In this document: in pieces, positions 2,036 to 53,002 of the stretch
How the letters are laid out: each line of letters starts with the position of its first letter
Position numbering within the stretch: the first letter of the stretch is position 1
Origin: Candidatus Kuenenbacteria bacterium HGW-Kuenenbacteria-1
Lineage (GTDB): Bacteria > Patescibacteriota > Patescibacteriia > UBA2591 > PGYQ01
DNA: 64,000 nucleotides
NCBI GenBank assembly: GCA_002839745.1
Contig: PGYQ01000001.1
Span: 80,775-144,774, forward strand
Reading direction: 5' to 3'
Notes under the pieces: generated by a model
Seen by the model: the letters and a program-made list of their open reading frames with translations, nothing else
What the model was told of the DNA's origin: nothing
The model's database searches: none
Position numbers and translations under genes: made by a program

Positions 2036-3301
2036 ATGACTAAAAAAATTAATTTAATTTTAATTATCGCGATTATTGTTTTGGTAATTATAAACATTGG
2101 TACTGTTTATTTTTTGTATTTAAAACAAAATAATAAAATTGATAATAAAAAACAAGAAGTTAATATTATTCCAGAAAATAATATTAGCAATGAGAATGAG
2201 ATATTGGCTGATAAAAAATTATCAACCAGTACATCAGAAAAAAATATTGTGGTTGCTTGGAATGAGTGGCCAATTACAACAATTTTTGGGCAATTATTTC
2301 CTTATGCGCAAATCGAGGAAGTAGTAAAGAATTTTAATAGCAAAAAAGAGAACATAGGTAGTCAAATTGATAAGGACGTTTTTGAAGATAGCGTTAAAAT
2401 TTATAAAGTTGGCGTAATAGCGCAAGGTGATTATTTAGGTGGAGAATTGTTTATTTTAAAATGTATATCAGGACAAGAAGGGATGTATAAAGAACAAATG
2501 TTTCGTGTAATTAAAACAAAGGATGATCGTCTTGTTCTACTTTCTAAATATTCACAAGAACCTTTAGATATTCTAAAAGAATTATGTATTATAGATGATA
2601 AAACTGTAATTTCTGATTTAGAAAAATTGCCAGTCAATATTTCAATACTAAATTCCAAAATTAAATTAATAAAAAATTTAAAAGAACCATTTTTATTAAT
2701 TAATGATTATCAAGAACCAAAAAAACTTTTTGAATATAGTAAAAATGAATTTGTTTATAAAGACAAAGAAAGCAATTGTTTTTTTATTAAAGCGCCGGAT
2801 GGAACAGCCAAAGAATATTATTTGGATTTAGATTTTATTGGTTTAGCAGGAAATAGCGAAGGATCTAATAATAAAAGTATGTTTGCCTACGGAGGTATAA
2901 TTCCTAATATGTTGGATTTTATTTGGTTGGATGACAGTAAAAATAGTAATGAATATACTTTTCAAAAAACTGGTATGTGTGGCTCTTTTGGTTGTTATAA
3001 TTACGCCGATTATATTACTGATATTTCTCAATTAGAAAAAGTTGGACAAACGGCAAATAACAATGCTATTTATGAATTAAAAGATAAAAATTTTACTATC
3101 AAAAATGCTGAAAATAGTATTTTAAAAGAAATCTATAATAATTACTATCCGGGATATGATGAAGTAAAAAAACAAGAAAAAACAAAAATAAGTTTTGAAG
3201 AATTTGTCAAAGAACACCCGCTTATTTATTGGCAAGATCCATTTGGAGAATTTATTGAATTTAAAAACGCTAAATATCTTCCAGCTGTTGAATGTAGCTA
3301 A
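2036..3301 (+). CDS. hypothetical membrane-anchored (N-terminal TM), probably extracytoplasmic protein
   Basis: Uninterrupted 421-aa ORF. N-terminal hydrophobic helix LILIIAIIVLVIINIGTVYFLYL. I recognise no domain. Confidence 0.5.
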   Translation: MTKKINLILIIAIIVLVIINIGTVYFLYLKQNNKIDNKKQEVNIIPENNISNENEILADKKLSTSTSEKNIVVAWNEWPITTIFGQLFPYAQIEEVVKNFNSKKENIGSQIDKDVFEDSVKIYKVGVIAQGDYLGGELFILKCISGQEGMYKEQMFRVIKTKDDRLVLLSKYSQEPLDILKELCIIDDKTVISDLEKLPVNISILNSKIKLIKNLKEPFLLINDYQEPKKLFEYSKNEFVYKDKESNCFFIKAPDGTAKEYYLDLDFIGLAGNSEGSNNKSMFAYGGIIPNMLDFIWLDDSKNSNEYTFQKTGMCGSFGCYNYADYITDISQLEKVGQTANNNAIYELKDKNFTIKNAENSILKEIYNNYYPGYDEVKKQEKTKISFEEFVKEHPLIYWQDPFGEFIEFKNAKYLPAVECS

Positions 3302-3345
3302 TTGGTTTAATTCAAACAGAAATTGATGAATTTATTGATTTTTGG

Positions 3346-3573
3346 TTGCCTAAGATGCAAAAAGATAATTATTATTTTATAACTTTTGTTTCGCAAAAAG
3401 AGTTTAATTTAATCGCGCCGTTAAATGTTTTGCCTCAGCCAGACACTGTTATTAAAGTATTTATGGATTATCAAGGTTTAGATAAACCAGTTCCAATTGA
3501 AGAGCAAGAAATTTCAATTCCAAAAAGAAATGGTTTTACTGTTGTTGAATGGGGTGGCGCGTTAAGAAAGTAA
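3346..3573 (+). CDS. small hypothetical protein. The frame is open back to 3298, so the start is uncertain.
   Basis: 75-aa ORF in a different frame from the upstream gene. No recognisable motif. Confidence 0.3.
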   Translation: MPKMQKDNYYFITFVSQKEFNLIAPLNVLPQPDTVIKVFMDYQGLDKPVPIEEQEISIPKRNGFTVVEWGGALRK

Positions 3574-17415: not shown

Positions 17416-17510
17416 AAATCAGTAATTAGTAATGGTTAAACAAATAATGTGAGTGAGGGTTTGCATCTACTTAATTTATTTTTTGGGTAAGTTGGAAAGT
17501 TTATTTTTTT

Positions 17511-17569
17511 GGGTAGGTTGGAGCCTCTGCTCCAACCAAAAAATGAGAGCAGAGGCTCTCATCTACCCC
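17511..17569 (+). repeat. REP-like 59-bp nested palindrome, copy 1
   Basis: GGGTAGGTTGGAGCCTCTGCTCCAACCAAAAAATGAGAGCAGAGGCTCTCATCTACCCC. An outer stem GGGTAG/CTACCC encloses two hairpins, GGTTGGAGC-CTCT-GCTCCAACC and TGAGAGC-AGAG-GCTCTCA. It is GC-rich in an AT-rich genome. A degenerate half-copy GGGTAAGTTGGA lies at 17487-17498. Confidence 0.7.
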
Positions 17570-17746
17570 AAGAATTGGAATTAGGGAATTGGAATTAGAA
17601 TGAATTAGGGACCGTTCATAAAAGTGTGGCTAGCTTTTTTTATCTTTTTGGGTTTAATAGTTAAAAATGGTTGCAATAATAGTTAAATTTGTTTTATTAT
17701 TAGAATAAATATTAAATTTATTATTAAATAATTATACATTTTTACT

Positions 17747-18370
17747 ATGCCAGACACAATTTTATGTAGGGTCTCAAGAATTATAACTTTTAGAAATAAA
17801 AATAATAAAATGCAATTTAAAAATTTTCCTAAATTTCAAGAAGGAATTCATTTTATCACAACAAAAACATTTAGAAATTATCCATATTTTAAAGATGAAA
17901 AAAATTGTCTAATTTTATTAGAAGAATTGAATTTTTATAGAAAAAAATTAGATTTTAAGATTTTGGGTTATGTAATAATGTCAGATCATTTACATTTTTT
18001 AATTTGGTGGGACATAGAAAAATATCCAGAATTAACGATTTCAAAAATAATGCAAGGGATAAAAGGACATTCAGCTATAAAAATAAGAGATTATATAAAT
18101 ATAACGGGTAGGTTGGAGCCTCTGCTCCAACCAAAAGATGAGAGCAGAGGCTCTCATCTACCCCATAAAAAAGGTCTTAAATATAAAATTTGGCAATCTG
18201 GATTTTATGATTTTAATATTATTTCTGAAAGAAAATTTTTAGAAAAGTTAAATTATATTCACAACAATCCAACCAAGTTTGGTTTATGTAAAAATTTAGA
18301 AGATTATAAATGGTCAAGTTATCGACAATTTATAAATTTAGATAAAAATTTAATTTTAAAAATTGATTAG
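17747..18370 (+). CDS. REP-associated tyrosine transposase (RAYT) / IS200-IS605 TnpA-like Y1 HUH transposase carrying an in-frame copy of the REP-like palindrome
   Basis: HUH motif SDHLHFLIW. C-terminal IWQSGFYDFNIISERKFLEKLNYIHNNPTKFGL...YKWSSY matches the RAYT helix that carries the catalytic Tyr. The ORF is about 20 aa longer than typical RAYTs, and the extra segment TGRLEPLLQPKDESRGSHLP is encoded by REP copy 2. Confidence 0.7.
   Translation: MPDTILCRVSRIITFRNKNNKMQFKNFPKFQEGIHFITTKTFRNYPYFKDEKNCLILLEELNFYRKKLDFKILGYVIMSDHLHFLIWWDIEKYPELTISKIMQGIKGHSAIKIRDYINITGRLEPLLQPKDESRGSHLPHKKGLKYKIWQSGFYDFNIISERKFLEKLNYIHNNPTKFGLCKNLEDYKWSSYRQFINLDKNLILKID
18106..18164 (+). repeat. REP-like 59-bp nested palindrome, copy 2, embedded in frame in the RAYT ORF
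   Basis: 58 of 59 positions identical to copy 1. It translates as GRLEPLLQPKDESRGSHLP within the transposase. Confidence 0.7.
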
Positions 18371-18384
18371 TTATAAATTTTTTT

Positions 18385-21384
18385 ATGGAAAAATCATTTT
18401 TCTCAAAAATGGAAGAAGAAATTTTAATTTTTTGGAAAGAAAATAATGTTTTCAAAAAATCTATTGAACAAAGAGATATAAAAAAGTCTTATGTTTTTTA
18501 TGATGGCCCACCATTTGCTACAGGCACTCCGCATTATGGGCATATTGTTGGTAGCGTTATGAAAGACATTATCCCTAGATATTGGACAATGAAAGGTTAT
18601 CGCGTTGAAAGAAAATGGGGATGGGATTGTCATGGTCTACCAATTGAAAATATTGCCGAAAAAGAATTGGGTTTTAAAACAAAAAAAGAAATTAAAGAAT
18701 TAGGAGTGGAAAAATTTAATGAAATTTGTCATTCAAAAGTTTTGAGTTATGTTAAAGAATGGGAAAAAGTAATTGAACGATTGGGTCGTTGGGCAGATAT
18801 GGATAATGCTTATAAAACTATGGATTTGGATTTTATGGAATCTGTTTGGTGGGTTTTTAAACAATTATGGGATAAAGGTTTAATTTATGAAGGCTATCGT
18901 TCTATGGCTATTTGTCCTCGTTGTGAAACAACTTTATCACAACAAGAAATCGCTGAGGGATATAAAATAATTAAAGATTTATCAGCAACAGTAAAATTTG
19001 AATTAGAAGATGAGCCAAAAACTTTTGTTTTAGCTTGGACAACAACGCCATGGACATTAATTGGAAATGTCGCATTGGCAATTGGAGAAAATATTGATTA
19101 TGTAAAAATAAGTTTAAAGTTGAAAGCTTGTGAAGAGCTTGCTGAATCCATTAAAATACAAAAATTAGGAGAATATTTTATCTTAGCCAAAGATAGATTA
19201 ATTGAAAATTTTAAAAATCAAGAATATGAAATTATTAGTGAATTTAAAGGATCAGAATTAATTGGCAAAAAATATAAACCTGTTTTTGATTATTATTTTA
19301 AAAATGAAAATTTAGAAAATAAAAAAAATGGTTGGAAAATATATTCCGGTGATTTCGTAACAATTGAAGAGGGGACTGGTGTTGTTCATATTGCGCCGGC
19401 TTTTGGTGAAGATGATATGAATTTAGGTAAAGAAAATAGTTTACCTTTTATTCAACATGTAAATATGGATGGAACAATTAAGATAGAAGCAAAGAATTTT
19501 GCTGGTATGAATGTCAAACCGATTGGCGATACTCAAAAAACAGATATTGAAATTATAAAATACTTGGCTCATAATGAATCATTGTTTAAAAAAGAAAAAT
19601 ATGAACATAGTTATCCGCATTGTTGGAGATGTGAAACCCCATTAATAAATTATGCGACTACTTCATGGTTTGTGGCTGTAACCAAGGTTAAAGAAAAGGC
19701 AATAAAATTTGCGCAAGAAATAAATTGGTCTCCTTCTCATATTAAAGAAGGTCGTTTTGGCAATTGGCTTTCAGGTAGTCGAGATTGGTCAATTAGCCGT
19801 CAGAGATTTTGGGCATCGGTTATTCCTATTTGGAAATGTTCTTGCGGAGAGATGAAAGTTTTTGGATCTGTAAAAGAATTAGAGGATTTAATAGGGCATA
19901 AAATTACTGATTTACATAAACATACTGTTGATAAAATAACTTTTAAATGTGAAAAATGTGAAAAAGAGATGAAACGAATCCCAGACGTTTTAGATACTTG
20001 GTTTGATTCAGGATCAATGCCATACGCGCAAATGCATTATCCATTTGAAAATAAAGAAAAATTTGAAGCTAATTTTCCAGCAGAGTTTATTGCTGAAGGA
20101 ATTGATCAAACTCGCGCCTGGTTTTATTATTTACATATTATTGGAACAGCAATTAATAATAGCAATGCGTTTAAAAATGTAATTGTTAATGGGATTGTTT
20201 TGGCTGAGGATGGCAAAAAAATGGCAAAGAGATTAAATAATTATTCCGATCCAAAGGAAATTTTTGATAAATATGGAGCAGATGCAATGCGTTTTTATTT
20301 AGCTTCTTCTCCAGTAATGAAAGCAGAAAATTTATCTTTTTCTGAAAAAGGAGTAGATGAAGCAAATAAAAAAATATTAAATACTTTATGGAATGTTTAT
20401 AAATTTTATGAATTGCATTCTAACAATCTAGAAATTAAAAGCTATAATATAAAAACTACTAATGTTTTAGATCAATGGATTTTGGCTAAATTAAATTTAT
20501 TAATAAAAGAAATAACAGTAAATATGGATGCTTATAAAATTATTAATAGTTGTCAATTTTTTGAAACTTTTATTAGTGAATTATCAACTTGGTATATTCG
20601 TAGAAGTCGCGAACGATTTAAATTAATAGATGAAAATAATTTTAAACCATTAATTGTTTTACATTATATTTTATTAACATTATCAAAATTAATGGCGCCA
20701 TTCACTCCATTTATTGCTGAAAAAATTTACCAAAATTTAAAAACCTATAACCTACAACCTACAGCCTACAATTTATCAATACATTTATGCGATTGGCCTC
20801 AATTAGATGAAGAAAAAATTGATCAAGAATTGATTAAACAAATGGATTTGGTTCGACAAATTTGTGAATTAGGACATAGTTTACGCTCAGAAGCTGGCAT
20901 TAAAGTACGACAAACACTAGGAAAATTTTCAATTTTCATCTGCCAGCTGGCGGATCAATTTTTAATTAATGAAGATTGTTTAAATTTAATCAAAGAAGAA
21001 TTAAATGTAAAAAATATAGAAATAGTGGGAGAATTACCAAAGGGAGAAAATTGGAAAACAAGAGAAGAAAATAAAATTCAAATGGCTTTGAATATAGAAA
21101 TAACGCCTGAATTAAAACAAGAGGGAATTTTTAGAGAAATTATCCGTCAGATCAATGTTTTGCGCAAAGAGAAGGGTTTAACAATTAAGGATAAAATTGA
21201 TTTATATGTTTATTTAGAGATAGGGGAGACAAAAGAGGTTTTTGAAAAATTTAAAGAAAAAATAGAAATAGCAACATTATGTAATCAATTATTATTTATT
21301 GAGCATAAAAAAGAAGGGGTTGATTTTGAAAAAGAAATTAAGATTGAAAATCAAGTAGTTTGGACAGGAATAAAAAAATATTAA
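18385..21384 (+). CDS. ileS: isoleucyl-tRNA synthetase, type 2 (eukaryote/archaea-like)
   Basis: PFATGTPHYGHIVGS (HIGH motif), KMAKRLNNY (KMSKS motif), a CP1 editing domain and zinc-binding CxxC pairs. 999 aa. Confidence 0.9.
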   Translation: MEKSFFSKMEEEILIFWKENNVFKKSIEQRDIKKSYVFYDGPPFATGTPHYGHIVGSVMKDIIPRYWTMKGYRVERKWGWDCHGLPIENIAEKELGFKTKKEIKELGVEKFNEICHSKVLSYVKEWEKVIERLGRWADMDNAYKTMDLDFMESVWWVFKQLWDKGLIYEGYRSMAICPRCETTLSQQEIAEGYKIIKDLSATVKFELEDEPKTFVLAWTTTPWTLIGNVALAIGENIDYVKISLKLKACEELAESIKIQKLGEYFILAKDRLIENFKNQEYEIISEFKGSELIGKKYKPVFDYYFKNENLENKKNGWKIYSGDFVTIEEGTGVVHIAPAFGEDDMNLGKENSLPFIQHVNMDGTIKIEAKNFAGMNVKPIGDTQKTDIEIIKYLAHNESLFKKEKYEHSYPHCWRCETPLINYATTSWFVAVTKVKEKAIKFAQEINWSPSHIKEGRFGNWLSGSRDWSISRQRFWASVIPIWKCSCGEMKVFGSVKELEDLIGHKITDLHKHTVDKITFKCEKCEKEMKRIPDVLDTWFDSGSMPYAQMHYPFENKEKFEANFPAEFIAEGIDQTRAWFYYLHIIGTAINNSNAFKNVIVNGIVLAEDGKKMAKRLNNYSDPKEIFDKYGADAMRFYLASSPVMKAENLSFSEKGVDEANKKILNTLWNVYKFYELHSNNLEIKSYNIKTTNVLDQWILAKLNLLIKEITVNMDAYKIINSCQFFETFISELSTWYIRRSRERFKLIDENNFKPLIVLHYILLTLSKLMAPFTPFIAEKIYQNLKTYNLQPTAYNLSIHLCDWPQLDEEKIDQELIKQMDLVRQICELGHSLRSEAGIKVRQTLGKFSIFICQLADQFLINEDCLNLIKEELNVKNIEIVGELPKGENWKTREENKIQMALNIEITPELKQEGIFREIIRQINVLRKEKGLTIKDKIDLYVYLEIGETKEVFEKFKEKIEIATLCNQLLFIEHKKEGVDFEKEIKIENQVVWTGIKKY

Positions 21385-23704: not shown

Positions 23705-24409
23705 ATGTTTTTTATAAAAAAACAATTTAATGAACAATATAAAAATATTATTTCTTTAGGAGTTTTTAGTTTTTGCTTTTTTGCAGGATTTGGTTTATTG
23801 TTTTATTCTTTTTTTATTATTTATCCTATAGAACAAATTTCTGATACAGAAGACCAAAATATTATAGATGTTAGCGCAGATATAAATATTGTATCAAAAC
23901 CATTTGATCTTAGTAAAGTTAAAATAAATGTTAATACAGAAATAGAATTTCAAAAAATAAAAAATGCAGAGAATAAAGAAGCAGAAAGAATTAAAGAAAT
24001 AGAAAAAATAAAGCAAGAAAAAATCAAAGAAGCAGAAAGAATTAAAGAAATAGAAAAAATAAAGCAAGAAAAAATCAAAGAAGCAGAAAGAATTAAAGAA
24101 ATAGAAAAAATAAAACAAAAAAAAATTAATGAGACAAAAAAAGCAAAAGAAACAGAGATTGGTATGGCTAGTTGGTATTGTCCAAGATGGTGTAATAAAT
24201 TGACTGCGGCTCATCCAAAATATCCCAAAGGAACCAAATTAAAAGTAACTAATTTAAAAAATAAAAAATCAGTAATTGTTATTGTAAATGATTTTGGACC
24301 GATTAAAGCTATACATCCTAATAGAATAATTGATTTAACAAAAACAGCTTTTCAAAAAATTGCTAGTATTAAAGCAGGAAAAATAAAGGTTATGGTAGAA
24401 AAATTATAA
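23705..24409 (+). CDS. rlpA: RlpA-like double-psi beta-barrel (septal ring lytic transglycosylase RlpA family) protein with an N-terminal TM and a tandem-repeat linker
   Basis: The C-terminal segment GMASWYCPRW...TAAHPKYPKGTKLKVTNLKNKKSVIVIVNDFGP...RIIDLTKTAF fits RlpA DPBB. It is preceded by three repeats of EAERIKEIEKIKQEKIK. Confidence 0.65.
   Translation: MFFIKKQFNEQYKNIISLGVFSFCFFAGFGLLFYSFFIIYPIEQISDTEDQNIIDVSADINIVSKPFDLSKVKINVNTEIEFQKIKNAENKEAERIKEIEKIKQEKIKEAERIKEIEKIKQEKIKEAERIKEIEKIKQKKINETKKAKETEIGMASWYCPRWCNKLTAAHPKYPKGTKLKVTNLKNKKSVIVIVNDFGPIKAIHPNRIIDLTKTAFQKIASIKAGKIKVMVEKL
23981..24133 (+). repeat. 3 x 51-bp near-perfect tandem repeat inside the rlpA-like gene
   Basis: The period is exactly 51 bp (copies start at 23981, 24032 and 24083). 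The first two units are identical and the third diverges at its 3' end. Confidence 0.8.
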
Positions 24410-34349: not shown

Positions 34350-35390
34350 TTACTGATTTTGTAATTGCCATTCTAAACGGTTGGGATTATTTAATTGAAT
34401 GAAGTCATAAGCCAAATCTAAAATATTTTGCTTGGAACGATAATTTTTTATTAAAGCAATTTGTTTTGCTTTTGGATAATCTTTTTTAAATTGCATTACA
34501 TTGCTAATTGAAGCGCCACGAAATTTATAAATTGATTGGTCATCATCAAAGGAAACGGTAATATTATTTTTTTGGGCACTTAATAATTTTATTAATTCAT
34601 ATTGAGCCCAATTGGTATCTTGAAATTCATCAACAAGAATATATTTAAATTGTTTTTGATATTTTTCTAAAATTTGTGGCCTTTTTTTAAATAATTTTAA
34701 GGTATAATTAATTAAATCTCCAAAATCCAGGGCACTGTTTTCTAATAAAAGTTGTTGATAAATATGATAAGCATTTGCAATTTCATTAATTCGCGCAATT
34801 TCTTGATCTTTAATTTTTTCTTTGTTTAAATTTTTTTTCAATTTTTCGGCATATTTTAAATAATCCTCCGGCCAAATTTCTTCATCCTTGGCTCTGGAAA
34901 AATGTTTAATCATTGCTTGAATAAATTTTGTTGGATTTCCCAAAGGGCGATAATAATCCAAATTAAATCGATCAAAATTTCGTCTGATTAAAAAATTTTG
35001 TTCTGTTTGTGTCAATAATTTAAAATTATCAGACAAGCCAATATCAATGGCGTGTTGTTTAAGAATTCTTTCCGCAAAAGAATGAAAAGTAGAAATCCAC
35101 AAATCAACATAACCATAAGGCAAAAGTATATCCACTCTTTCCTCCATTTCTTCTGCCGCTTTATCAGTAAAAGTTAAAGCTAAAATTTCTTCTGGCTTCG
35201 CTTGATTAGATAAAATTAACCAAGCTATTCTGCTGGTAATAACGGTCGTTTTCCCAGTTCCTGCTCCGGCAATAATAAGCAAAGGACCATTTTTATAAGT
35301 CACTGCTTTTTTTTGTTCTTCATTTAAATTTTCTAATAAATTTTTTTCCATAAAAATATGTTTAGGTATGTTTGGGGGTCGTATCCACAA
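34350..35390 (-). CDS. UvrD/Rep-family helicase N-terminal half (motifs Q through IV), terminating abruptly. Likely truncated or split.
   Basis: GAGTGKTTVITSRIAWL (motif I), ILALTFTDKAAEEM (Ia), ILVDEFQDTN (II), VSFDDDQSIYKFRGA (III), NYRSKQNILDLAYDFIQLNNPNR (IV). A stop follows and domains 2A and 2B are missing. Confidence 0.65.
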   Translation of the reverse strand: MWIRPPNIPKHIFMEKNLLENLNEEQKKAVTYKNGPLLIIAGAGTGKTTVITSRIAWLILSNQAKPEEILALTFTDKAAEEMEERVDILLPYGYVDLWISTFHSFAERILKQHAIDIGLSDNFKLLTQTEQNFLIRRNFDRFNLDYYRPLGNPTKFIQAMIKHFSRAKDEEIWPEDYLKYAEKLKKNLNKEKIKDQEIARINEIANAYHIYQQLLLENSALDFGDLINYTLKLFKKRPQILEKYQKQFKYILVDEFQDTNWAQYELIKLLSAQKNNITVSFDDDQSIYKFRGASISNVMQFKKDYPKAKQIALIKNYRSKQNILDLAYDFIQLNNPNRLEWQLQNQ

Positions 35391-35393
35391 ACA

Positions 35394-36968
35394 TTAGATT
35401 AAACTGTTTCCTGTCATTTCTTCTGGTTCTGAAATATTCATAATTTTTAAAATTGTTGGGGCAATATCAGCTAAAACACCAGAAGAAACAAGTCCACTTA
35501 AATCTGGATTAATTCTACCTAATTCTATAGCTTTATTTTCCCATTGTTTTCCAATTAAAATAAACGGCACTGGATTAGAAGAATGTTCTTTATCAATTTC
35601 TCCTGTATATAAATTAATAACTTCTTCAGCATTACCATGATCAGCAGTGATTAAAGCAGTTCCATTTTTTGATAAAATTTCATCAACAATTTTTTTTAAA
35701 CATTCATCAATATATTCCGTTGCTTGAATAACCGCTTTTAAATTTCCTGTGTGCCCAACCATATCTGTGTTAGCAAAATTTACTACAATAAAATCATATT
35801 CATCTTTGGAAATTTCTTGAAGCAATTTTTCTATTATTATAGGGGCACTCATTTTTGGCTGTTCAGCGTATGAAGAAATTTGAGGAGATGGAACAACAAT
35901 ATTGCTTTGTCCTTTGAAAGGTTTTTCTTCTCCACCATTAAAAAAATATGTCACATGAGCGTATTTTTCCGTTTCGGCAATATGTAATTGATTTAATCCT
36001 GAATCACTAAGAATTTTTGCTAATGGCATTTTAATTTCTTCTGGCGAAAAAGCTATTTTTACTAAAAGATCTTTTTCATATTCAGTCATTGTTGCAAAAT
36101 ATAAATTTTTCAAAAATTGAGGTCTTTTAAAATTTTGAAAATCTGGTAAAACAAACGCCTGAGTTAATTCTCTAGCGCGATCTGATCTAAAATTAAAAAA
36201 AATCACCGCGTCTTTGTCTTGAATTTTAGTAATTGGCTCTTTGTTTTCATTTAATAAAACTGTTGGCAAAAATTCTTCATCAAAAATATTTCGATCATAA
36301 GAATCTTGAATTGCTTCAATTGAATCATTAAAACTTTTTTCTGATTGTCCCTCTGTCATTGCTAAAAAAGTTTTTTCAATCCGATCCCAATGATTATCTC
36401 TATCCATCGCATAAAATCGTCCAGAGATTGTAGCAATTTTTCCGATACCAATTTGATTTATTTTTTCTTCTAACTCTTTTATAAATTCTATACCACTATT
36501 ATAAGCCACGTCTCGACCATCTAAAAATGCGTGAATATAAACTCGTTTTTGTTTTTCTTTTTTTGCTAATTCTAATAAACCGAAAAGATGTTCATTAAAA
36601 CTATGTGTCCCGCCATTTGAAACCAACCCCATCAAATGCAAAGCAGAATTATTTTCTTTGGTATATGAGCATGCTTCTAAAAAAACTTTGTTATTAAAAA
36701 AACTTCCATCTAAAATAGATTTATTAATTCGAGGTAAATTTTGATAAACAATTTTTCCAGCTCCCAAATTTAAATGTCCGACTTCTGAATTACCTACTTC
36801 TCCATAAGGTAATCCCACTGCTTCTCCAGAAGCCTGCAAAACAGCGCTAAAATAAGTGGTAATATATTTATTAAAATTAGGAGTTTTTGCTAAGCTAATT
36901 CCATTTCCTCTGGATGCCGGAGCCACTCCCCAGCCATCAAGAATAATTAAAACAATTGGTTTTTTCAT
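35394..36968 (-). CDS. gpmI: 2,3-bisphosphoglycerate-independent phosphoglycerate mutase
   Basis: KKPIVLIILDGWGVAPASRGNGISLAKTPN, plus Mn-binding His/Asp motifs and ADHGNAEE. Confidence 0.9.
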   Translation of the reverse strand: MKKPIVLIILDGWGVAPASRGNGISLAKTPNFNKYITTYFSAVLQASGEAVGLPYGEVGNSEVGHLNLGAGKIVYQNLPRINKSILDGSFFNNKVFLEACSYTKENNSALHLMGLVSNGGTHSFNEHLFGLLELAKKEKQKRVYIHAFLDGRDVAYNSGIEFIKELEEKINQIGIGKIATISGRFYAMDRDNHWDRIEKTFLAMTEGQSEKSFNDSIEAIQDSYDRNIFDEEFLPTVLLNENKEPITKIQDKDAVIFFNFRSDRARELTQAFVLPDFQNFKRPQFLKNLYFATMTEYEKDLLVKIAFSPEEIKMPLAKILSDSGLNQLHIAETEKYAHVTYFFNGGEEKPFKGQSNIVVPSPQISSYAEQPKMSAPIIIEKLLQEISKDEYDFIVVNFANTDMVGHTGNLKAVIQATEYIDECLKKIVDEILSKNGTALITADHGNAEEVINLYTGEIDKEHSSNPVPFILIGKQWENKAIELGRINPDLSGLVSSGVLADIAPTILKIMNISEPEEMTGNSLI

Positions 36969-37013
36969 CTTAAAATAAACTCGTAACAGTAAACCAGTAA
37001 CGAGTAATTAAAA

Positions 37014-38567
37014 TTAGAAATTTAATTTAAAATTTTCAATTAAACTTTTTCCTTTCATTTCTTTTGGTTTTTCTATTTCGAATAATTCTAAAATTGTTGG
37101 AGCGACATCGGATAAAATTCCATCTTTTCTTAATTTTCTTTTTTGATTATCTACTAAAATAAATGGCACGGGATTTTTTGAATGTTTTGTGTCAATTTCT
37201 CCAGTTTCCAAATTAATCATTTCCTCAACATTGCCATGATCAGCTGTTATTATTACTGTTCCATTTTTTTCTTGAACCTTTTTAATAATTTTTCCCACAC
37301 ATTTATCAACGCATTCTATTGCTTGGATAGCTGCTTTTAAATTTCCTGTATGACCAATAATATCTGGGTTAGCAAAATTCACCGCAATAAAATCATAATT
37401 TAATTTATTTAAAACTGTTTTTGTAATTTCTGGCGCGCTCATTTCTGGTTGTTTATCATAATAAGGAATATCTAATGAAGGAATTTTTATTCTTTCTTCG
37501 CCATTCACAGGATCAGCATATCCGCCATTAATAAAATAAGTCATATGAGCATATTTTTCTGTTTCAGCAATATAAACTTGTTTAAATTTTTCCAAAACAA
37601 GAGGCAAACACATTTTTATATCACGAGACGGAAAAGCTGTAAAAACATGAGGTAAATCAGGTCCAAAATCAGTCATTGCTACAAAACGAATATTTTGCAA
37701 AACTTTCTTTCTTTTAAATGAACCTTCGTTCATTTTATTAAAATCTTTTTGAAGAAACGCCTTGGTTAATTCTCTAGCGCGATCAGATCTTAAATTAGAA
37801 AAAACAATCATATCATTGTCATGAATAACACTTATTGGTTTTTTGTTTTTTGTAATTACTGTCGGAGAAATATATTCATCAGTTAAATTTTTATTATAAG
37901 CCTTTGAAATTGCTTGTTCTGGACTTTCCGCTCCCTCCCCCTTTCCTAAAACCATTGCATTATAAACACTTTCAATTCTTTCCCATTTTTTCTTTCTATC
38001 CATGGCAAAAAATCGTCCAGAAATTGTAGCAATTTTTTCTTGACCTTGAAAATAAGCCTCAACTTTTTTTAAATATTTTATTGCTCCATGCTGAGAAGAA
38101 TCGCGACCATCAGTGAAAAAATGAAAAAAAATTTTATTACTATTTATTCCTTGTTGTTCAATTAATTTTAATAAAGCGTGAATATGACTCAAATCAGTAT
38201 GAGGACTTTGTGAACCTGAAAGCAAACTCATTAAATGAATATTTGTTTTATATTTTTTTGTGTGTTTTATTGCTTCTAAAATGGCTGTATTTTTAAAAAA
38301 TGTTCCATCAATAATACTTTCTGAAATATAAACAGCATCTTGTTTAACTATTCTGCCAGCTCCTAAATTAATATGCCCGGCTTCAGAATTGCCATCCTGA
38401 TAATTAGGTAAGCCAACATATTTTCCATGGGCTTTTAATAAAGTATTTGGATATTTTTTATATAAAAAATCCATCACTGGCGTCTTGGCTAAAGTGACAG
38501 CATTTCCTTTTGACGCCGGAGCAATTCCCCAGCCATCAAGAATAATTAAAACTATTGGTTTTGACAT
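37014..38567 (-). CDS. gpmI: second, diverged paralog of 2,3-bisphosphoglycerate-independent phosphoglycerate mutase. The start is probably the internal Met, so the called ORF extends 23 codons upstream.
   Basis: MSKPIVLIILDGWGIAPASKGNAVTLAKTP ... ADHGNVEE. Tandem with the first copy and roughly half of residues identical by eye. Confidence 0.85.
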   Translation of the reverse strand: MSKPIVLIILDGWGIAPASKGNAVTLAKTPVMDFLYKKYPNTLLKAHGKYVGLPNYQDGNSEAGHINLGAGRIVKQDAVYISESIIDGTFFKNTAILEAIKHTKKYKTNIHLMSLLSGSQSPHTDLSHIHALLKLIEQQGINSNKIFFHFFTDGRDSSQHGAIKYLKKVEAYFQGQEKIATISGRFFAMDRKKKWERIESVYNAMVLGKGEGAESPEQAISKAYNKNLTDEYISPTVITKNKKPISVIHDNDMIVFSNLRSDRARELTKAFLQKDFNKMNEGSFKRKKVLQNIRFVAMTDFGPDLPHVFTAFPSRDIKMCLPLVLEKFKQVYIAETEKYAHMTYFINGGYADPVNGEERIKIPSLDIPYYDKQPEMSAPEITKTVLNKLNYDFIAVNFANPDIIGHTGNLKAAIQAIECVDKCVGKIIKKVQEKNGTVIITADHGNVEEMINLETGEIDTKHSKNPVPFILVDNQKRKLRKDGILSDVAPTILELFEIEKPKEMKGKSLIENFKLNF

Positions 38568-38694
38568 AAGAAAAATATTTAAAAAAATTCTAAATTTTAA
38601 ATTTCTAAAACCTAGAACATAATTAAAATTATACAAAAAAACTTCAAAATAGCAATTTAAAAATAAAAGATTATAATTTTTATTATTTTAATAA

Positions 38695-39135: not shown

Positions 39136-39637
39136 TACGATTTGATAAATTTTGATGTATAAGTGTAAATTGAATACGAATTATGCCTGACGTATTAGTG
39201 CGAGATAAATTTGAAAAAGAAAGATTAGAAACAATAACGCGAGAATTGGTAATAGACACATTTGAACCGGTCCCCTCTTTAATTTTAATCACGCCGTTAG
39301 TAAGATCAAAAATTGTCGGATCATTTGCACTAGCAATAACATCTAATGTTAAAGATGAAGCGCTTATGCCTTGCAAAGGCGAAATGATGGCTTCCGCATT
39401 CCGCGCTGTTTGTGTAATAATTTGCATCACTGCTAATCCTTGTTGTTCCACTTCAGCAATGGTTTGATTTTTCACACGCGATTGAAGTAATAAAAATAAA
39501 AATATAGAAATAGCCAAAAGCATTATTGATGCAATGCTAATGTAAAGCAATAATTCAATAAGAGTAAAACCCTTGGTAGCTTTTAGCTGATAGCTGTTAG
39601 CTAATAGGTTTTTAAATTTATTTTTTTTTATTTTCAT
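39086..39637 (-). CDS. type IV pilin / pseudopilin with a prepilin-type N-terminal cleavage/methylation motif
   Basis: Leader ...SYQLKATKG|FTLIELLLYISIASIMLLAI. The G-F-T-L-I-E motif is followed by a hydrophobic helix. Confidence 0.65.
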   Translation of the reverse strand: MKIKKNKFKNLLANSYQLKATKGFTLIELLLYISIASIMLLAISIFLFLLLQSRVKNQTIAEVEQQGLAVMQIITQTARNAEAIISPLQGISASSLTLDVIASANDPTIFDLTNGVIKIKEGTGSNVSITNSRVIVSNLSFSNLSRTNTSGIIRIQFTLIHQNLSNRNEYNFSKTFYGSASLR

Positions 39638-47573: not shown

Positions 47574-48044
47574 TTAATATTGAATTAATCCTTTATTATT
47601 AATAATAATATTCCGCGCTTCATTATTATTAGTCAAAGTAATTATTCCTGTGGTTTGTGGAAAGCCAGTAAATTTTGCAAAAACTATTTCAGAAAGTCCT
47701 GATTGAATAATATTTGTTGGTATTTCAAACACTTCATCAAAAGCAATATCTCGTATAGCATAACTTTCGCCTTTAAATAAAGTGATATTTCCTATTGTAA
47801 TATGCATACCCCATGAAATATCACCATTAATTGCTTGTGATAAAACTTGTGCGCGACGCAATGTTTGAACAATTTCATTTGTCGCAACATCAAGATTATT
47901 TTTATTTTGAAATGACTGAGAAATTGGAAAGGAAATTCCAGCAATAATTGTGATTAACGCGACAGAAAGCATTGCTTCTAACAAGGTAAAACCTTGAGAA
48001 GTTTTTAGCTGATAGCTTTTAGCTGTTAGGAAATTAAAAAACAT
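47574..48044 (-). CDS. type IV pilin / pseudopilin
   Basis: Leader MFFNFLTAKSYQLKTSQG|FTLLEAMLSVALITIIAG. Confidence 0.65.
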   Translation of the reverse strand: MFFNFLTAKSYQLKTSQGFTLLEAMLSVALITIIAGISFPISQSFQNKNNLDVATNEIVQTLRRAQVLSQAINGDISWGMHITIGNITLFKGESYAIRDIAFDEVFEIPTNIIQSGLSEIVFAKFTGFPQTTGIITLTNNNEARNIIINNKGLIQY

Positions 48045-52458: not shown

Positions 52459-52621
52459 CACGGTTGGGATGTTCTAAAAAAAATATAAAATGTGTTATTA
52501 TTTATAAATAATTTTATTAAAAATTAATAAATTTATGGGGTAGATGAGAGCCTCTGCTCTCATCTTTTTTTTGGTTGGAGCAGAAGCTCCAACCTACCCA
52601 AATCTTTTGGTTAGAACATCC
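52459..52621. mobile_element. MITE-like element: a 163-bp unit bounded by 19-bp perfect terminal inverted repeats, carrying an inverted REP-like copy
   Basis: Left TIR CACGGTTGGGATGTTCTAA (52459-77). Right TIR TTAGAACATCCCAACCGTG (52603-21). The interior is AT-rich except for the REP-like palindrome at 52529-52591. Confidence 0.5.
52529..52591 (-). repeat. REP-like nested palindrome, copy 3, in reverse orientation and slightly diverged
   Basis: The reverse complement is GGGTAGGTTGGAGCTTCTGCTCCAACCAAAAAAAAGATGAGAGCAGAGGCTCTCATCTACCCC. Against copies 1 and 2 it has one substitution in the first hairpin and a longer A-tract. Confidence 0.65.
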
Positions 52622-52639
52622 CAACCGTGCCCTAGAGCC

Positions 52640-53002
52640 TTATTTTAATTTTTCTTTTACCCATTCAACAATTTCAGCGATGGGTTTGTCAGATTTAACA
52701 AAAAAAGCTATCGCGCCTAATTCTATTGCACGTTTTTCATCATCTAACTGACCCAAATTAGTCAATACAGCCACTGGTATTTTAATTTTTATTTCCTTTA
52801 ATTTTTCTAATACTTGAAATCCATCCATTTTTGGCATAATTAAATCAAGTAAAATAAAATCTACTGTTTCTTTTTCAAGAAACAAAATAGCCTCTTTTCC
52901 ATTTTGTGCATTAATTACATCAAAACCTTCAAACTTAAGTTTAAATTTTAATGCATTTGCGATTGATTTTTCATCTTCTATAATAAGAATTCTTTTTGGC
53001 AT
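52640..53002 (-). CDS. stand-alone response regulator receiver domain (CheY-like)
   Basis: ILIIEDE ... ILLDLIMPKMDG ... and a K near the C-terminus. 120 aa with no output domain. Confidence 0.8.
   Translation of the reverse strand: MPKRILIIEDEKSIANALKFKLKFEGFDVINAQNGKEAILFLEKETVDFILLDLIMPKMDGFQVLEKLKEIKIKIPVAVLTNLGQLDDEKRAIELGAIAFFVKSDKPIAEIVEWVKEKLK

Follow-up and report, generated by a model that had tools for sequence, protein, structure and literature searches.

What is a GC-rich palindrome doing, in frame, inside the gene of an enzyme that presumably mobilises such palindromes? The question is raised by a 64-kb stretch of DNA (hereafter the window; 27.5% GC) from Candidatus Kuenenbacteria HGW-Kuenenbacteria-1, an uncultured groundwater bacterium. 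Here an initial annotation had described a 207-amino-acid open reading frame (ORF; 17747..18370, + strand) as a REP-associated tyrosine transposase (RAYT, also TnpA_REP, an HUH-Y1 nuclease; REP, repetitive extragenic palindrome) with a palindrome inserted in its coding sequence. The palindrome proved to be a REPIN-like element (REPIN, REP doublet forming hairpins), and REP insertion into this one loop of RAYT proteins was shown to be recurrent among relatives. The enzyme, the element, its history and the reasons for its persistence are treated in that order below.

The identity of the enzyme was assessed by profile and by predicted fold. The ORF product, which is 100% identical to hypothetical protein CVV26_00490, scored 101.3 bits against the equivalog profile NCBIfam NF047646 (REP_Tyr_transpos; cut-off 80) and 37.8 bits against Pfam PF01797 (Y1_Tnp; cut-off 23). 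An AlphaFold (AF2) model built on 30 homologues reached a predicted local distance difference test score (pLDDT) of 82.8, and its best Foldseek match in the PDB was E. coli TnpA_REP in complex with a REP hairpin (4ER8_A; E = 6.3e-8, target TM 0.67), followed by TnpA of IS608 and ISDra2. The HUH motif H81-L-H83 (17987..17995, +) lies in strand beta3, the WQ motif W149-Q150 is found at 18191-18196 (+), and the catalytic motif YIHNNP with Y170 and N174 (18254..18271, +) lies in the tyrosine helix. Across the 30 homologues H81, W149, Y170, H172, N174 and P175 are invariant, and H83 and Q150 are kept in at least 90%. The asparagine at Y+4 is the counterpart of N119 in E. coli TnpA_REP (PMC6006769), and N174 is likely the third metal ligand. 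Judged by curated profile and predicted fold, the gene is therefore a RAYT, a small "domesticated" transposase, with its catalytic residues intact, as the initial annotation had read from its HUH motif and tyrosine helix. An IS200/IS605 insertion sequence was considered and rejected, because the IS200 profile NF033573 stayed at 26.8 bits, under its cut-off of 55, and the tyrosine motif is YIHNNP and not Y[IV]ENQ. No tnpB-like ORF was found near the RAYT gene, which is present in one copy within the window.

The annotated start is probably too far upstream. As homologues begin at the equivalent of MFKNLPKF and residues 1-30 are poorly predicted (pLDDT below 60), the true start suggested by sequence and model is ATG 17810 (M22), which would give a protein of 186 amino acids. 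The claim that the ORF exceeds a typical RAYT by about 20 residues agreed with the profile alignment, where 160 residues cover 139 positions of the NCBIfam model.

The extra 20 residues, T120-P139, are encoded by the palindrome. This intragenic REPIN-like element (18106..18164, +, 59 nt), GGGTAGGTTGGAGCCTCTGCTCCAACCAAAAGATGAGAGCAGAGGCTCTCATCTACCCC, is inserted in frame, after the HUH motif and before the tyrosine helix; it begins with the third base of the T120 codon, ends with the first base of the H140 codon and codes for TGRLEPLLQPKDESRGSHLP. Hairpin 1 occupies 18111-18132 and hairpin 2 occupies 18136-18159, both enclosed by an outer stem GGGTAG/CTACCC. As single-stranded DNA (ssDNA), the 59-mer is predicted to form a double hairpin within a 4-bp outer stem (-22.1 kcal/mol, z = -7.9). 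Because each of the 12-nt cores, GAGCCTCTGCTC and GAGCAGAGGCTC, is the reverse complement of the other, one long hairpin is an alternative fold, and both structures had been foreseen in the initial annotation. A REP consists of a GTAG head followed directly by a hairpin, and an inverted REP dimer with outward heads is a REPIN. In the present element the + strand reads GTAG-GTTGGAGC..GCTCCAAC and the - strand GTAG-ATGAGAGC..GCTCTCAT, which bears out the earlier view that the palindrome is REP-like. Since each half is a GTAG-headed REP with an 8-10-bp hairpin, and the two are inverted with their heads outward, the unit (55-63 nt among its copies) is a REPIN-like inverted REP dimer. A search of Rfam with the element gave no known RNA family, all hits being hairpin look-alikes below threshold (miRNA precursors, sok).

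The composition of the insert sets it apart from its host gene. The insert has 55% GC and a GC content at third codon positions (GC3) of 0.50, compared with 20% GC and a GC3 of 0.12 in the remainder of the RAYT gene. Its codons CTC, CCC and AGG are near-absent from the adjacent genes murA, ileS and dus; the 144 leucine codons of the neighbouring genes include no CTC and a single CTG. An intron, an intein and an assembly artefact were each rejected as explanations, given that the element is 59 nt long and codes for 20 amino acids and that three independent assemblies agree fully in the RAYT gene, palindrome included, and show no empty site. As a separate observation, two other assemblies of the same organism (L116 and L117) have 24 additional bases, AACACTTTAACTATTATGACAAAA, between 17728 and 17729, a little ahead of the RAYT start codon. 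In a comparison over 20.6 kb these bases are the sole difference between L116 and the window, and L117 departs from the window in only a handful of additional places. The indel is a population-level one and falls in the likely promoter or leader of the RAYT gene.

Two further full copies of the element were found in the window. The first is extragenic, at 17511..17569 (+), 178 nt upstream of the ORF and in the orientation of the intragenic copy; it matches at 58/59 positions, as had been noted before, and no such match arose in 100 shuffles. Beside it lies the degenerate 5' half-copy GGGTAAGTTGGAAAG (17486..17500, +; 11/15 bases), also described earlier, and the same T-run precedes the half-copy and the full copy. 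The second full copy had escaped the initial annotation. It is intergenic, 34 kb away at 52537..52599 (-), and is 63 nt long, with four additional A in its spacer and a single loop change (CTCT to TTCT); its predicted fold has -21.5 kcal/mol (z = -7.8). Apart from these three REPIN copies, the window has no GC-rich hairpin units with a GTAG foot. The short tandem repeat that had been placed at 17575-17615 is real, and it is small: GAATTGGAATTAGG at 17572..17598 (no strand assigned) has a period of 14 and 1.9 copies, and it abuts the upstream REPIN. In L014 and L020, too, short AT-rich tandem repeats of a similar kind adjoin this REPIN, and it is uncertain whether the repeat in the window is part of the REPIN/RAYT system.

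Two side observations concern the surroundings of these copies. A perfect 19-bp inverted repeat, CACGGTTGGGATGTTCTAA (52459-52477 and 52611-52629), encloses the third REPIN copy together with about 60 nt of AT-rich DNA, just 3' of a response-regulator gene (52640-53002, -). Only these two arms occur in the window, and they may bound either another palindromic element of larger size or a miniature inverted-repeat transposable element that received the REPIN. The GC skew of the window is positive to about 28 kb, negative at 28-54 kb and mostly positive at 54-58 kb, after which its sign varies, and the G-rich strand carries the same REPIN strand at all three copies (17.5, 18.1 and 52.5 kb). Such a strand bias would fit a single-strand, lagging-template mechanism, with n = 3 and a skew that may only follow gene orientation.

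When did the palindrome enter the gene? The initial annotation had offered recent self-targeting or an adapted insertion. The internal and upstream copies differ at only 1 of 59 positions, as expected if the element had recently inserted itself in this genome. However, the homologue at L001 (68% identity) carries the same element at the identical codon (ACG GGT AGG...), and so, in the same codon and frame, does L028 from a Stahlbacteria metagenome-assembled genome (MAG; about 68% identity). Both homologues stem from other environments and phyla than the window RAYT, and their elements show lineage-specific compensatory changes. In stem 1 of L001 a G:C pair has become A:T, by a change of E124 to K on one side and a synonymous CTC to CTT on the other. 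Added to this is the identity of the three assemblies at the gene. We therefore regard a recent insertion in this genome as highly improbable and, because homologues of about 68% identity share the element and its codon with compensatory stem changes, read the internal copy as inherited with the gene. The other alternative of the initial annotation, an adapted insertion, is possible and unproven. Among the 166 homologues listed, no RAYT relative more than 90% identical was seen without the 60 nt.

In other relatives the loop is the same and the palindrome changes. L003 and L113 have the stem set GGCGAAAGC-CCTC-GCTTTCGCC and GTGCGAGC-GAGG-GCTCGCAC, enclosed by GGGTAGG / CCTACCC, while L112, L034 and L038 have a single 32-nt "double-foot" palindrome GGGTAGG...CCTACCC. 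A single REP, TTGGAGCAGATGCTCCAA plus CTACCC, is present in L115, L032 and L033, three to four REP units fill the loop of L004, and about five units, read in another frame (EQRLSSTH...), occur in the Buchananbacteria RAYT of L009 (minus strand, ~2800-3550). Translated in that frame, the L009 loop reads QEQRLLSTHHEGSSEPPLRD repeated, and one further REP unit lies immediately upstream of that gene.

Loop length was compared across those RAYT genes that could be identified by their motifs in the collected loci. Those with an HUH-to-W spacing of at most 56 amino acids are mostly without perfect hairpins (four have a single short one, with a 7-bp stem in three of them), and every RAYT with a spacing of at least 63 has at least one hairpin. 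A metagenome locus scan yielded mostly distant RAYTs (about 30% identity), which served as outgroup. The best 120 matches of a RAYT profile search all belong to uncultured Patescibacteria or Chloroflexota, and the clade gives more than 5000 profile matches, including Chloroflexota and WOR-3/Stahlbacteria. By sequence comparison, the whole clade bears REP hairpins in this RAYT loop.

Is it the DNA or the peptide that is kept? In the AF2 model the order of elements is beta3 with the HUH motif (81-87), alphaC (98-120), the insert (120-139), beta4 (154-158) and the tyrosine helix (161-177). As residues 131-143 have a pLDDT below 50, the insert is modelled as a low-confidence loop between alphaC and beta4, probably disordered, in line with the initial placement of the insertion in a loop between the HUH motif and the tyrosine helix. 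By HMMER, L138-P139-H140...K145 were aligned with F84-T85-H86...K91 of 4ER8, in which T85, H86 and K91 are labelled as REP contacts (Fig. S7C, PMC6006769); on this alignment, the REP-encoded peptide lies immediately ahead of part of the REP-binding surface. The peptide itself might thus have been selected as a DNA-recognition loop, with the palindrome as a by-product (L-E-x-x-L-Q, for example, is palindromically encodable). The insert does end exactly at the residues aligned with T85/H86, upstream of K91, and a motif of the type GLEQMLQ[SP]T occurs widely across the clade.

The comparison of the inserts points the other way. The insert peptide is TGRLKPLLQPDESRGSHLP in the closest homologues and TGRRKPSLSPYSKGASEGSHLP in others, GLEQMLQ[SP]T is found in a large Chloroflexota-like RAYT group, and far longer repeat-like inserts occur elsewhere. 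LEPLLQP, for instance, has drifted to LKPLLQP or RRKPSLSP. Peptides as radically different as TGRLEPLLQPKDESRGSHLP, TGRRKPSLSPYSNGASEGSHLP, GKQGQLPLPTR and EQRLSSTH... are thus encoded by a constant hairpin architecture with constant GTAG/CTAC feet. What is conserved is the palindrome while the peptide changes, and not, as the initial annotation had allowed for, the extra 20 residues in homologues without the palindrome. In addition, the leucine codons of the insert are the rare, palindrome-compatible ones described above, identical sequences also occur outside genes, and the loop is predicted with low confidence. A purely peptide-level explanation is therefore disfavoured, and selection of the peptide as a recognition loop is improbable in our judgement.

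The internal palindromes were then related to those outside the genes. For the window and for L004, L032, L033, L034 and L115, an extragenic palindrome equal to the internal one lies in the flank or close by, and flanking REP copies are present in the first four of these relatives. The window gene, with its upstream copy and half-copy, likewise shows the REPtron arrangement, in which a RAYT gene has its cognate REPs beside it. In an alignment of 18 type-A/C copies, 96.6% of cells were paired and six pairs had changed on both sides, compared with about 41% pairing in shifted-register controls. The loops of hairpin 1 and hairpin 2 co-vary. Stem pair 11/22 is G:C in all three window copies, and 12 of the 18 copies in the alignment have A:T there. 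In a genome collection that covers relatives but not the source genome, the 22-mer GAGCAGRGGCTCTCATCTACCC was found in 27 stretches from nine MAGs (labelled WOR-3, Stahlbacteria, Buchananbacteria, Actinomycetota or unnamed bacteria), mostly outside long ORFs; exact matches lie on six contigs of CSMAG_2279 and on ten of binchicken_co262_332. No target-site duplication or common flank was evident at the REPIN copies. As a side observation, the hairpin-2 half GATGAGAGCAGAGGCTCTCATCTACCC is joined to a different conserved left part, GAAAAGTACGTATCCAGTCCTTAA, in L011, L013 and L018 and also in L026 and L029 (MAG binchicken_co262_332). The GAAAAGTACGTATCCAGTCCTTAA-GATGAGAGCAGAGGCTCTCATCTACCC fusion is a composite, or a different repeat family with one REP in common.

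Taken by analogy with E. coli TnpA_REP and the IS200/IS605 family, from which cleavage and mobilisation by the RAYT are inferred, the following course of events may be proposed. The HUH/tyrosine enzyme would bind REP hairpins in ssDNA, read the GTAG at their foot, and cut and rejoin there, which would disperse the REPINs. The alphaC-beta4 loop would tolerate almost any REP-encoded peptide, and insertions into it would survive only if in frame and free of stop codons. Resident REPs might attract more REPs, so that units would accumulate in the loop of some relatives. The internal and the extragenic copies would form a single evolving REPIN population, linked by copying or conversion that may run either way, and this is the likely reason why the internal copy stays GC-rich and foldable in a genome of 27% GC. 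Turnover with an active REPIN pool is thus our preferred and moderately probable account of how a GC-rich palindrome persists in an AT-biased gene.

Several points weigh against this account. The activity of the enzymes of this clade would rest on the analogy with E. coli TnpA_REP, and the REPIN copies documented in the source genome are only the three within the 64-kb window. No extragenic copy of the internal palindrome was found in the 6-19 kb of DNA available for each of L003, L112 and L113. MAG CSMAG_437 has dispersed type-A REPINs, and its RAYT carries a different internal palindrome. A 55%-GC palindrome kept under AT pressure could equally reflect direct selection on the internal copy, and the insert adjoins residues aligned with REP contacts of 4ER8, so that the loop may not be functionally neutral.

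Direct selection would be expected if the internal REPIN were a maintained cis-element, either a master or seed copy that re-founds the population on horizontal transfer or an autoregulatory site. In the autoregulatory version, the RAYT would bind the ssDNA or mRNA of its own gene, or the structure would stall or terminate antisense transcription; in the antisense direction a T-run comes after hairpin 2, and the site is scored as terminator-like. The persistence of such GC content in a gene with so low a GC3 speaks for a maintained element, and so do the compensatory changes that keep the palindrome while the peptide drifts and the genome-specific stem variant common to the three window copies. 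A nearly identical element of 54-59 nt is present in MAGs labelled Kuenenbacteria, Buchananbacteria, Stahlbacteria, WOR-3 and Actinomycetota, and this occurrence across phyla fits co-transfer of gene and repeat. However, cross-phylum labels of MAGs can stem from binning errors, and internal copies decay in relatives, the first unit of L004 having lost hairpin 1 and P0040 being nearly without a palindrome-like peptide. Insertion frames and numbers also differ, as for repeated opportunistic insertion. We therefore consider a maintained cis-element possible, though on the unlikely side. Slightly more doubtful is the extended form of this idea, in which a heritable master copy or autoregulatory site, by being embedded in frame, would co-transfer enzyme and substrate between phyla and shield the repeat from AT-biased decay. 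In a related reading, exapted REP-encoded peptides would have given rise to the alphaC-beta4 "extra domain" found in certain RAYT subclasses. Compared with these alternatives, turnover with the REPIN pool is the reading that we retain.

The genomic setting is as the initial annotation had given it. The RAYT gene is placed between murA and ileS, and its neighbours carry the Pfam domains of MurA (PF00275) and of an IleRS-type class I tRNA synthetase (PF00133, PF08264, PF19302). The gap to ileS is 14 nt, and no REPIN copy lies downstream. In this clade RAYT genes are found between same-strand housekeeping genes, 9-15 nt from at least one neighbour, in the contexts pheS-RAYT-pheT (L114, 10001-10621), pyrC-RAYT-carB (L115, 10001-10546) and murA-RAYT-ileS (window, 17747-18370). 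These genes look operon-embedded and do not appear to lie in islands.

Other repeats were also seen in the window. Heptamer-type tandem repeats occur at 20733-20779, 39544-39616 and 47966-48038. CCTATAACCTACAACCTACAGCCTACAA lies within the ileS ORF and codes for ..YNLQPTAYNL..., and TAGCTGA/TAGCTGT arrays at two other sites are 74% alike; they may form another small repeat family with one member in frame in a housekeeping gene. A lysine/glutamate-rich tandem repeat at 23944-24152 (periods 18/33/51) and two adjacent stretches at 35389-38574, about 1.6 kb apart and 73-79% identical, are unrelated to the RAYT finding, and the latter may be a tandem gene duplication.

How does the locus compare with known systems? 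Subclass 2.4 of TnpA_REP, which equals RAYT group 4 of Bertels et al., is the first to be considered. The initial annotation had called a REP inside its own transposase gene unusual. In-frame REPs in the HuH-Tyr interval of tnpA_REP genes had, however, been reported for subclass 2.4 by Quentin, Siguier, Chandler and Fichant in 2018 (BMC Genomics 19:475, PMC6006769), who also described "double foot" REPs, and the window RAYT is a new example of this known phenomenon. As in subclass 2.4, REPs both flank the gene and occur within it, in frame and in the HuH-Tyr interval, with inserts of varying length and number. The REPs are canonical GT[AG]G ones, with "double-foot" REPs in relatives (L034, L038, L112, L115), the WQ and YIxNNP motifs are present, and the distribution over several phyla is patchy. 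In contrast, the HuH motif of the window RAYT is DHLH and not NH[IFV]H (Table 1, PMC6006769), and the gene has a KWSSY-type proximal tail. Its insert lies at alphaC:beta4 by AF2 and not at beta3:alphaC as in the homology models of that paper, a discrepancy that may be methodological. Furthermore, the host belongs to the candidate phyla radiation, of which none is named among the taxa listed for subclass 2.4 (PMC6006769). Compared by motif and loop, the fit to subclass 2.4 is thus imperfect, and an assignment to that subclass would be tentative. Against plasmids, tblastn yielded no more than distant relatives from cultured organisms (Bernardetia, 36%; Kovacikia, 22%), both of which lack an intragenic REP; the closer of the two, that of Bernardetia, resembles subclass 2.6 (NHVH, YIHNNP, YSS).

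In our literature search no report of RAYTs in Patescibacteria was found. The present results extend the REP/RAYT system, including the REP inside its own transposase gene, to bacteria of the candidate phyla radiation (Kuenenbacteria, Buchananbacteria, Parcubacteria) and to a very large uncultured clade. They provide a clean case of conservation at the DNA level within a coding region, with hairpins kept while the peptide drifts, and thereby make the question of passenger versus cis-element experimentally testable. Such inserts also inflate the length variation of RAYTs, disrupt profile alignments (the Pfam PF01797 match ends at the insert, at residue 115) and can break assemblies. The current picture of how RAYTs work is unchanged.

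With E. coli TnpA_REP (YafM) the window enzyme shares the HUH-Y1 fold and a tyrosine helix with N at Y+4, and W94/Q95 of the former are W149/Q150 of the latter; as in E. coli REPs and bacterial interspersed mosaic elements, a GTAG head is followed by a hairpin and REPs adjoin the gene. However, the identity is only 18%, about 32 residues separate HUH and W in E. coli compared with 68 here, the E. coli gene has no internal REP, and its REPs are longer, bulged hairpins. The REPINs of Pseudomonas fluorescens (Bertels and Rainey 2011) are likewise replicating units made of an inverted REP pair, foldable as one long hairpin and tied to a single RAYT gene, whereas the unit in the window is much shorter (55-63 nt, spacer 5-11 nt), has a low documented copy number and includes one intragenic copy. 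In-frame REPs in other genes are known from Di Nocera et al. 2013 (PMC3733652) and from the literature on Rickettsia palindromic elements. Like the present element, these palindromic repeats (Ogata et al. 2000; Di Nocera et al. 2013) lie in frame within coding genes and lengthen the proteins by 20-30 residues, presumably in tolerant loops. They sit, however, in unrelated genes such as uvrA, uvrB and polA, whereas here the host gene is that of the presumed mobilising enzyme itself.

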